From NCBI GenBank assembly GCA_020137815.1, contig CM035357.1:744001-808000 (forward strand): a DNA stretch of 64,000 bases. The letters are read 5' to 3'. The notes under the pieces are model-generated. The model saw only the letters and a program-made list of their open reading frames with translations, made no database searches and was not told the origin of the DNA. The number at the start of each line of letters is the position of its first letter. The first letter of the stretch is position 1. Made by a program: the position numbers and the translations under genes. This document shows, one piece after another, positions 13,701 through 43,640 of the stretch. This DNA is from Hormiphora californensis. Lineage: Eukaryota; Animalia; Ctenophora.

Positions 13701-16700
13701 TTAGATTTACAACTTTTACGCCGAGAAAAAAACGTCATATGACCGGCCTATATAGGGAAGAAGAAGGAGGGAATGAAAGAGCTGTGAAAATACCCTGATG
13801 TTTCTGACGGCGATACACTCCGTTTTGATTCTCTAAGATCGGAGTTGAACTCCTGGTTGTTAAATTAAAAGCTAATTACCGGTGAAACCAGGACGGCAGA
13901 TGTTGCACTGATTTAGAGAGCATTGTGGTCCAGAGCAGTCCTTCTTTTCTGTCATTGTGTTGTTTCCACACGGACAATTTTCTCCTGAAAAGAGGGATTA
14001 CATTTTTACCGGGCCCCGATTTACCAGAATCCCGATTTACGGGGCAAAACCGTTTCCCTTGAGCATCCCGGTAAATCGGGGTCTGACTGTAGGTGGTGGA
14101 CGAAGCCACTCTCCTCGCTCCGAGCGAGAAAAGGTCAGCGCGAAGCCTAATAGAGGGCGTTTTCTGAGTTCACACTAGACATTATTAGGTAATAAATACC
14201 TGTAAAGTGATCACAAGACCACGCATGGCTGTTACACTGACACGGTATACAACTGTTAGTTTCCGCACTGAAATAGTAGCCGTGTCGAGTACACCGATCA
14301 CAGTAGTCCCCCACTGTCTTGTTCGTACATCCAACACACTTGACGTTGCTGTAAACTGGTGGTTATTTGATGGGTTAGTTTGTTATGGGAGTCTGCCACT
14401 GAAATTGTAACATGGAACACTCACAACAGTCGGACTGCCACACGGATCGAGAAATAGCCGCGCTGACGGCCAAAAAAAACACTCACAACACTGATAATCG
14501 ATATCAACCCCGACACAATCTAGAAGCGAGAGAAGCAGTATAGCACTGTTTTTACCGAGAAGAATGGTTGGCCACGTCGCTCCCCTCTGTGTTCCTACGG
14601 AGGGGCAGGCTACGCGGCCAAGAAGACTGGAGAAGAAGGGGTAGCTAGCAAACAAAACAGTGACAGAGCAGAGAGCACAGAGTTGGAATAGTTCTTTGGC
14701 CTGGCATTGAATATATGAAGAATCTGGTGACTGAAGAATGAAGAAGTGCTGAGTAAATGATTTACTAAATGTTCGTAAATATAAAATTAGAGACGAAAAA
14801 AGAACTGTCTGATGACTCATGACGAAGTCAGCACTTCTTTCAAATGAATGTCACTAATTCAAAATGCTAAATCTAGATATCTTGGTTGAAAAAACGCCGA
14901 TATTTAGGGATCAGGGATTGTGAAAGTGTGTGTCGAAAGTGAGTGTGCCCGTCGTGTCTGTCTCTGTGTTCAAGACCTGTTGAAGCAGTCCCATAAATCT
15001 GGACCTCAGCTATGTCCATAATCTGGATGGTTACAACATCTGTAGTGGCAGGATCATCACCCGCCGATATAAAGGCGTCCGATACTTTAACTCTATCTGT
15101 TTCAGTCGTCTTAGGACATTTGATACGATATGTATAATAACCATAGGGTGCGACATCGTCTATTGAGCCACAGATGACTCCCCAATCATGTGCTTGGGTG
15201 TCGTATAGTGTGACAGTAGTGCCAAGGATTCGGGATTTTAATCCCTCGTCGTTCCTAGACAGTTCGGATATGAAGAGCATGTATGAGAGTATCAAAACTA
15301 GAAAGCAGGAACCGACCTACACAAATAAACAACCAATCAGAACTCGTTATTTAGGTCACTTGACTGGTTATCAGCCAATCAGGGACTAGTATTTCCTGAT
15401 TCGGTCGGTTCCTGTCATGCTAGAAAGAAGCTAGGGAACAGAAAATCTGAGAGAAATAATTTGAAGTATTCACCTGTCTTCAATTTGAACGAAATCAATC
15501 ACTGCCTTAGTTTGAAGCTGGAATATAAGCCATTGTGGATCTGTTGATGACATATCGCTGTGATAGAAGGTAGAAATATCTCCATCAAACGCATTTGATA
15601 CTGGGAAACCATTACCCGGCCAATTATTGGTGTGGGCACTAGCATTTTTGATTGGTATTTTGAATGATGACCCAGGATTTAGTAGAAGCAGGAACACAAT
15701 TAGGAACATATCTCCAGTTGGGCTCGATACACTCGATAAAAAGTTGGGAAACACGATATAAGGAAATGAATTCCAGAGACTCGCTCAACACATTATCTTC
15801 ATCTAGGGAGAGGTCCCACGTGCGTCAAATGACATCTCCCACTGTGCTCTCACTGTGCTCCCACTGTGCTCTCCACTGTGCTCCCACTGTGCTCTCCCAA
15901 GATAATGTTAGAAAGAATCGGAGTTTCTGGTCTGAGCCTCTAGACTCTATAGCTTTCAGGCATCGCTCTAGAAGCGTGGACTTGGAGTTGGTCGATCAGG
16001 GAGATAAAAATAGAATTATATTCTTCATCTATAACTACGATCTAGACTGTGATTTTAACACGTGACTGAGCTCAGCTGAGGTAATGCGGCACATGGTTTG
16101 ATCTGAGAGGGAGGGCGGGGAGAATGGCTCCATTGTGGCAAACTGCTTCTTTTTTATAGTTTAGCAACAACACAAGTAGGGGGAAATGTATGAATATGGC
16201 ACCCACGTGACCCCAATGACGTCACGTGACTAGGTCACGTGACCTAGTCACACTCCTGACAAACTCTACTCTCAAGCACGGTGCATGTCCAGCGAAGCAT
16301 ACGAGATCATTGGTCAGCGATGCCCATGGAGGATCACCCCCCCCCCCCCCCCCCGATGACCTGATAATGGCCATGGTTCTATCTACTCACGTAATGGTAC
16401 AAAGGGGCTATTCTCCGCCCCTCTCTCCCAATACTCACGTAATGGTACAAAGGGGCTATTCTCCGCCCCTCTCTCCCAATACTCACGTAATGGTACAAAG
16501 GGGCTATTCTCCGCCCCTCTCTCCCAATACTCACGTAATGGTACAAAGGGGCTATTCTCCGCCCCTCTCTCCCAATACTCACGTAATGGTACAAAGGGGC
16601 TATTCTCCGCCCCTCTCTCCCAATACTCACGTAATGGTACAAAGGGGCTATTCTCCGCCCTTCTCTCCCAATACTCACGTAATGGTACAAAGGGGCTATT

Positions 16701-43640: not shown

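Follow-up and report, generated by a model that had tools for sequence, protein, structure and literature searches.

Several introns of one long gene of the ctenophore Hormiphora californensis were found to be filled with tandem copies of their own exon–intron boundaries. We analysed a window of 64,000 nucleotides (positions 744,001 to 808,000 of contig CM035357.1, assembly GCA_020137815.1; all coordinates below are those of the window). In it we directly observed unrelated units of 33–58 bp that span splice junctions, with the spare copies lying in the introns and with alleles that differ in the junctions duplicated. These arrays are a dense and polymorphic set of the 'mirage' type, in a lineage for which we found no report of it; they are not a new system. 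We consider it probable that they are lancelet-type mirage minisatellites derived from ordinary small tandem duplications, which expanded and were kept because the exon-contiguous splice site stays in use.

The host gene and its surroundings

The arrays lie in a MEGF8/attractin-like gene on the minus strand (10790..43640), which was modelled by hand from the sequence with 50 predicted exons coding for about 2530 amino acids. The predicted product has, in order, signal peptide, CUB, EGF, Kelch, cysteine-rich, laminin-EGF and transmembrane regions, and Pfam matches to CUB, EGF, Kelch or attractin propeller, and laminin/attractin EGF domains were obtained in seven of the eight exons scanned. The initial annotation had called this long minus-strand gene MEGF8. 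Its domain order fits this name and makes the gene appear MEGF8-like. A homolog search with exon 30 returned none among 1825 candidate proteins (of up to 2000 residues) and a structure search with exon 28 returned laminin EGF chains only, neither giving a full-length ortholog, so the name is based on domain order. The reading frame is open over 46 of the 49 exon joins of this model; it was reset at exons 12, 19 and 23, and the border between exons 12 and 13 is uncertain. Frame breaks occur at 39550-39621, 32277-32432 and 34190-36870. The first two, beside short runs of C, are possible assembly errors; a missed exon or a wrong border could account for the third.

Other features of the window were also noted. 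A probable nested gene with a signal-peptide-like start lies on the same strand in intron 44 (14876-15784, minus strand) and has a weak F5/8 type C match (E 5.4e-06, below the cut-off). A pentraxin-like nested gene with weak Pfam matches lies on the opposite strand in intron 18 (34791-35850, plus strand). Nested genes are common in a ctenophore, according to parts of PMC8527503. Large transposon-like elements with long inverted arms occupy 12470-13720, 21760-24611 and 49500-55300, and one of these contains a 55 bp × 11 array at 23203-23800. The window also has five copies, 93–98% alike, of a ~110 bp dispersed element (11800-11915, 15303-15414, 39211-39305, 41210-41321 and 61216-61326), at least three of them inside introns, and also in loci L001-L003; a scan of metagenome contigs for this element gave three loci of 1.2–1.4 kb, with no usable array. 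An LDL-receptor-repeat GPCR is encoded by one very long exon at 44787-48290 (plus strand). The two of its 45 relatives that carry species names are from the ctenophores Bolinopsis and Mnemiopsis.

Anatomy of the junction-spanning arrays

For every junction of the model, copies of its eight exon and eight intron letters were sought in the adjacent intron, allowing at most two mismatches. Such near-identical copies were present for 5 of the 49 donors and 1 of the 49 acceptors (6 of 98 junctions, all of one gene). Introns 3, 24, 27, 43 and 44 contain 12, 4, 1, 16 and 16 extra donors, respectively, and intron 25 contains 14 extra acceptors (15 with a shifted test window). The six arrays that had been reported at splice junctions proved to be real: each was found where the initial annotation had placed it and overlaps a splice junction of the model. 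Their units measure 33–58 bp, including 11–34 exon letters.

All six are on the minus strand. Array F (41976..42730) consists of 13 copies of a 58 bp unit carrying the last 25 nt of exon 3 and the donor, giving 13 donors including the true one; a tail with a 16-bp sub-repeat reaches 41936. Array D (31207..31379; 33 bp × 5.2) repeats the last 16 nt of exon 24 with the donor and has 5 donors including the true one. In array C (26808..26972), two copies of 53 bp and a partial third carry the last 34 nt of exon 27 and the donor, for 2 donors including the true one. Arrays B (17368..18116; 44 bp × 17) and A (16384..17187; 48 bp × 16.8) carry the donor with the last 11 nt of exon 43 and the last 30 nt of exon 44, respectively, and each offers 17 donors including the true one.

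Array E had been described as an acceptor array running from 27457 to 30472. It is indeed built of acceptors, but it is not continuous. The near block (27456..27874) holds six decoy acceptors and the true exon 26 acceptor (27480), and the far block (29963..30453) holds nine decoy acceptors in units of acceptor plus exon 26; the unit has a period of 43–47 bp with 25 exon letters, and the array counts 16 acceptors including the true one. Between the blocks lies an element of about 2.1 kb (27880..29950) with internal direct and inverted repeats, which appears to be transposon-like. Some array E units contain 25–51 letters that are 96–100% identical to an in-frame coding repeat of exon 30 (25301..25433, minus strand; 36 bp × 3.7). 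A palindromic motif common to the intron 33 repeat, array E and the exon 30 repeat was rejected as a general seed; besides these it occurs at a single further position in the gene, and arrays A, B, C, D and F lack it.

A single mobile element or one satellite family was not found behind the six arrays. As the initial annotation had stated, the units share no sequence, and for each of the 15 unit pairs at least 12 of 200 shuffles were as similar. The variants in the units are ordered, and within array F variant units sit in runs, a pattern that local expansion would produce.

Decayed versions, which the initial annotation had also mentioned, were recovered at three places: a 44-bp duplication across the exon 24 acceptor in intron 23 (31470..31530, minus strand; low score of 14), and junction copies of donor 12 and acceptor 34 with 4 mismatches in 16 letters each. 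A borderline donor array (21187..21271, minus strand; 39 bp × 2.2) starts at the last base of exon 33 and was not counted as spanning. Wholly intronic arrays are about as frequent as the junction-spanning ones, and many of them begin just past a donor.

Elsewhere in the window, a wholly intronic 25 bp × 120 array (942-3930) begins about 19 nt past a likely donor (near 3949); the gene concerned is on the minus strand and by eye looks ankyrin-like. A decayed array of 25–53 bp units (61869-62005, plus strand), made of pyrimidine tract and AG without exon letters, extends up to a likely acceptor near 62007. A 21-bp duplication ending in pyrimidine-AG (370-409, minus strand) may abut an acceptor, and an AG near 316 fits equally.

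Decoy splice sites, reading frame and stops

The coding frame had been said to require the copy contiguous with the exon. This holds for arrays B, C, D and F, the decoys of which sit behind an in-frame stop; in four of the five donor arrays a stop lies ahead of the first decoy or inside the unit (at intron nt 7 in array D and at intron nt 2 in array B). It does not hold for array A, where the first nine decoy donors are identical, in frame and stop-free and would add 16-residue repeats, nor for the nearest decoy of array E, which lies 81 nt upstream, in frame and stop-free. The array A unit is 48 nt long, and a 47-bp unit, which could be an assembly error, breaks the frame at copy 10.

These stop-free decoys bear on the idea that some of the arrays are functional, either through alternative donors of array A that add 1–9 copies of the 16-residue repeat extracellularly, or through decoys that tune expression via decay. 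Boundary tandem repeats do give alternative splicing in some human genes, as parts of PMC2812944 report. However, one third of units would be multiples of three by chance, the frame of array A is broken by the 47-bp unit, arrays come and go between alleles, and most decoys stand behind stops. We therefore regard a functional role as very improbable. More likely, as the initial annotation had suggested, the decoys are harmless and the arrays persist for that reason.

RNA from an array-bearing allele did not turn up in the public runs (for 18130-21800 none was listed), and first-donor use is therefore taken here from mammals and lancelets. One contig of X7 looks RNA-like; it aligns with 26939–27092 in exon 27, differs there at 22 of 154 letters, and comes from a diverged relative that may lack the array. 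The match ends exactly at the exon-27-contiguous donor, beyond which the contig, by eye, resembles exon 28. This contig supports the exon 27 border in a diverged relative and is silent on decoy use.

Further duplications on other alleles

Six DNA runs from two samples contain part of the gene; the window may itself derive from the first sample. We aligned contigs from X1, X5, X6 and X7 to 24620-27560, a region with 12 junctions. Among the joints listed, at least three further junction-spanning duplications were observed on other alleles, all absent from the window. The exon 31 donor (24635..24682, minus strand) is single-copy in the window and duplicated on other alleles with a period of 47–48: X1 goes back 48 at a depth of 240.6, compared to 17–35 for nearby single contigs, and X6 has a joint from 24678 to 24649 with 17 letters between (period 47). 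The exon 29 donor (25820..25862, minus strand), also single in the window, is duplicated in the second sample, where X6 goes back 43 and X5 has a joint from 25863 to 25839 with 11 letters between (period 36); X5 and X6 are one sample here, and the duplication was counted once. The exon 27 acceptor (27080..27151, minus strand), again single in the window, is duplicated in the second sample (X6) with a period of about 75 at a depth of 150.8.

Of the arrays seen in the window, C and E fall within this comparison. X6 has the period-53 joint of array C. In one X5 contig, 26804 is followed directly by 26922, so that the second copy is skipped. At the near block of array E, contig depth is raised and E-like loose ends occur in X1, X5 and X6. 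X6 also carries an additional copy of an 11-bp intronic unit. In total, when the window and the listed joints of other alleles are combined, at least 5 of the 12 junctions carry a duplication, and presence or absence differs at four junctions between the contigs of the two samples, which give no copy numbers. Exons are conserved in this region, and introns differ by large indels between samples. One allele joint was informative for microhomology, with 4 letters fitting both sides, which is too few to name a repair pathway.

Since other alleles carry further duplications and one contig skips an array C copy, the process that duplicates junctions is recent and recurrent. This accords with the earlier proposal of a recurrent process rather than one repeat family, the units being unrelated, and the comparison of haplotypes that it had called for shows that alleles of the two samples differ in which junctions are duplicated. 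The reality of the arrays in independent reads is borne out for array C and the exon end of array E, the two that were compared.

It is extremely unlikely that the arrays are assembly artefacts. The assembly probably has small errors, as the three frame breaks of the model suggest, two of them beside short C runs, and the comparison with independent reads covers array C and the exon end of array E. Nevertheless, the period-53 joint of array C and E-like sequence occur in independent contigs of the second sample, duplications of the same kind are new in the contigs, and the unit variants are ordered and the decay graded.

Array C also contains a dispersed 45-bp repeat (26833-26877). Its exact 45-nt inverted match at 35121-35165 was considered as a templated insertion and dropped; the contig depth of 8,000–43,000 with many unrelated loose ends indicates a high-copy dispersed repeat.

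Junction-spanning arrays compared with chance

For the null, arrays were collapsed to their seeds and inserted elements were removed, which leaves a median intron of 165 nt; boundaries and collapsed lengths are estimates. Because the collapsed introns are this short, about one third of tolerated 33–62 bp duplications is expected to span a junction. The high-score set comprised the 10 arrays of this gene with a period of at least 20 that lie in introns outside inserted elements. Six of them span a junction by at least 5 exon letters, one starts on the last exon base and three are intronic. The six junction-spanning arrays compare with 3.1–3.3 expected (P 0.056–0.058), and the five donor-spanning ones with 1.8–1.9 expected (P 0.02). 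Acceptor-spanning arrays showed no excess (1 observed, 1.4 expected, among the same 10). When five weak repeats were added, 7 of 15 spanned a junction compared to 4.7–5.3 expected (P 0.15–0.24), and with inserted elements kept in the null the P values were 0.08–0.23.

A bias was also seen in where arrays start. Eight of the 10 begin within 25 nt past a donor (3.2–3.4 expected, P 0.002, with the threshold picked post hoc); a threshold-free rank test gave P 0.009 for the 10 arrays and 0.078 for all 15. With the intron 3' ends closed in the null, the high-score arrays gave P 0.05 for donors and 0.006 for starts near a donor. All three allelic duplications of at least 20 bp among those listed span a junction (joint probability ~0.017). 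Pooling window and alleles, with allelic joints as listed, gave 9 of 13 spanning compared to 3.9 expected (P 0.004), or 10 of 18 compared to 6.1 with weak repeats (P 0.04); the joint probability and these pooled figures are inflated, as the gene was picked for its arrays, alignment of contigs is most successful where an exon anchors them, and the joints are those listed. In the gene 20.9% of the sequence is tandem repeat, compared to 20.0% in the remaining window, so the gene is not unusually repeat-rich.

Enrichment beyond what short introns would give by chance, on which the initial annotation had made its proposal depend, is therefore present for donors, borderline for all junctions together (P ~0.06) and absent for acceptors. 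The excess is about twofold, concerns donors only and comes from a pre-selected gene, and is suggestive only.

This excess is one argument for a rival explanation, in which exon ends, and donors in particular, are preferred sites of duplication and selection only trims. Repair synthesis anchored in a conserved exon could meet a diverged intron in this very heterozygous genome and re-anneal out of register, or breakage could be linked to co-transcriptional splicing. Consistent with such a bias are the donor excess, the 5' start bias and the pooled count with allelic joints as listed, and also the microsatellites that begin 6 and 16 nt past the donors of introns 19 and 13, the at least 5 of 12 junctions duplicated in 24620-27560 among the joints listed, and the conservation of exons next to introns that vary by large indels between samples. 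The pieces of an exon 2 kb away within some array E units are a sign of template switching. However, the data come from one gene, chosen for its arrays, with small numbers, and with weak repeats P weakens to 0.04–0.24; exon-anchored contigs would leave intronic duplications on other alleles under-seen. A model based on the edge of heterozygosity further predicts that acceptors are hit equally, and acceptors show no excess. We consider preferential formation at exon ends rather improbable. Its lineage-wide version, in which donor-aimed duplication is so frequent that a large share of junctions (at least 5 of the 12 compared) carries a segregating array, appears similarly doubtful. The junction-targeted mutational mechanism put forward in the initial annotation is thus not established, as geometry alone gives about one third, the roughly twofold excess concerns donors only, and the gene was picked for its arrays.

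A proposed model of array formation

We favour generic duplication followed by selection. In line with it, 4 of the 10 high-score arrays do not span a junction, and the gene also has an in-frame array within its coding sequence. A duplication of 30–75 bp would arise anywhere in this repeat-rich and very polymorphic genome, through break repair or slippage and at a high rate. Two copies would then seed expansion by unequal exchange or slippage. Selection would remove frame-shifting duplications, so that the survivors are intronic, in frame, or junction-spanning with their spare copies in the intron. With introns of only ~165 nt before insertions, junction-spanning seeds would form a large share.

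Donor arrays would outnumber acceptor arrays as the first donor would be preferred, as in human F7, and changes near the branch point and acceptor would be less tolerated. Transcripts spliced at most of the decoys would be degraded, owing to the stops observed ahead of these sites. Against this reading stand the residual donor-side excess, the starts near donors and the junction-spanning position of all three allelic duplications listed.

The arrays extend lancelet-type mirages to a ctenophore, where they are dense and polymorphic in one gene. A species with short introns, numerous alleles and many separate arrays would allow two questions to be tested: whether the origin of duplications is biased towards junctions or survival accounts for them there, and whether the preference for the first donor dates back to the first animals. 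If targeting were true, this genome would be a natural, thousand-fold replicated test of mirage formation and first-donor choice outside bilaterians. Annotators should be aware that arrays of this kind can be mistaken for additional exons.

Comparison with known systems

Our literature search, which left most subscription journals outside its scope, found no report of mirages in ctenophores and no genome-wide test of junction enrichment for such arrays; the word 'minisatellite' is absent from the passages of the ctenophore paper PMC8527503 drawn on here. Several related systems are known from other animals.

In the tandem-duplication model of intron gain (Rogers; cited in passages of PMC3087553), duplicated splice signals are likewise the raw material. 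Here, in contrast, existing junctions are duplicated and no intron is created: the intron of every array has its own unique far end and its other splice site, and the exon 27 borders are common to the diverged X7 transcript. Variable tandem repeats at boundaries also alter gene structure in human duplicated genes (De Grassi and Ciccarelli 2009; PMC2812944). In the parts of that survey of many genes used here, the repeats are similarly variable and placed at boundaries, but they are mostly exon-derived and make new introns or alternative forms, whereas in Hormiphora the copies fill introns that already exist, with no sign of a new one.

A closer counterpart is the 37-bp VNTR in intron 7 of human F7 (Borensztajn et al. 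2006; PMC1557585, in part), in which the first unit spans the junction and, of 5–9 identical donors, the most upstream alone is used, the others being functional. It differs in being a single locus with no acceptor array, and the use of the upstream donor is experimental there and by analogy here.

The closest system is that of lancelet (Branchiostoma) mirages, defined in sections of PMC3087553 as tandem repeats spanning exon–intron boundaries and described there in Adh3 and the globins BflGb6 and BflGb9; PGBD5 and troponin C (TnC) also carry them (PMC3902484, in part). According to those sections, lancelet mirages occur at both boundary types with units of 10–160 bp, differ between haplotypes and leave the mRNA apparently normal, and their mechanism was termed unclear. 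The resemblance is close, with boundary copies at donors or acceptors, unrelated units, several arrays per gene and variation between haplotypes. In Hormiphora, units span the boundary with spare copies in the intron at 6 of 98 junctions, comprising five donors and one acceptor with locus-specific units of 33–58 bp, and haplotypes differ at four junctions between two samples. The two cases differ in phylum and in density, which is higher here (6 of 98 junctions plus at least three on other alleles). Normal splicing and, for Adh3, somatic instability are reported in the lancelet, whereas the Hormiphora arrays are known from DNA. The system is thus not undescribed, as had been supposed; its kind has already been named in lancelets and worked out in human F7.
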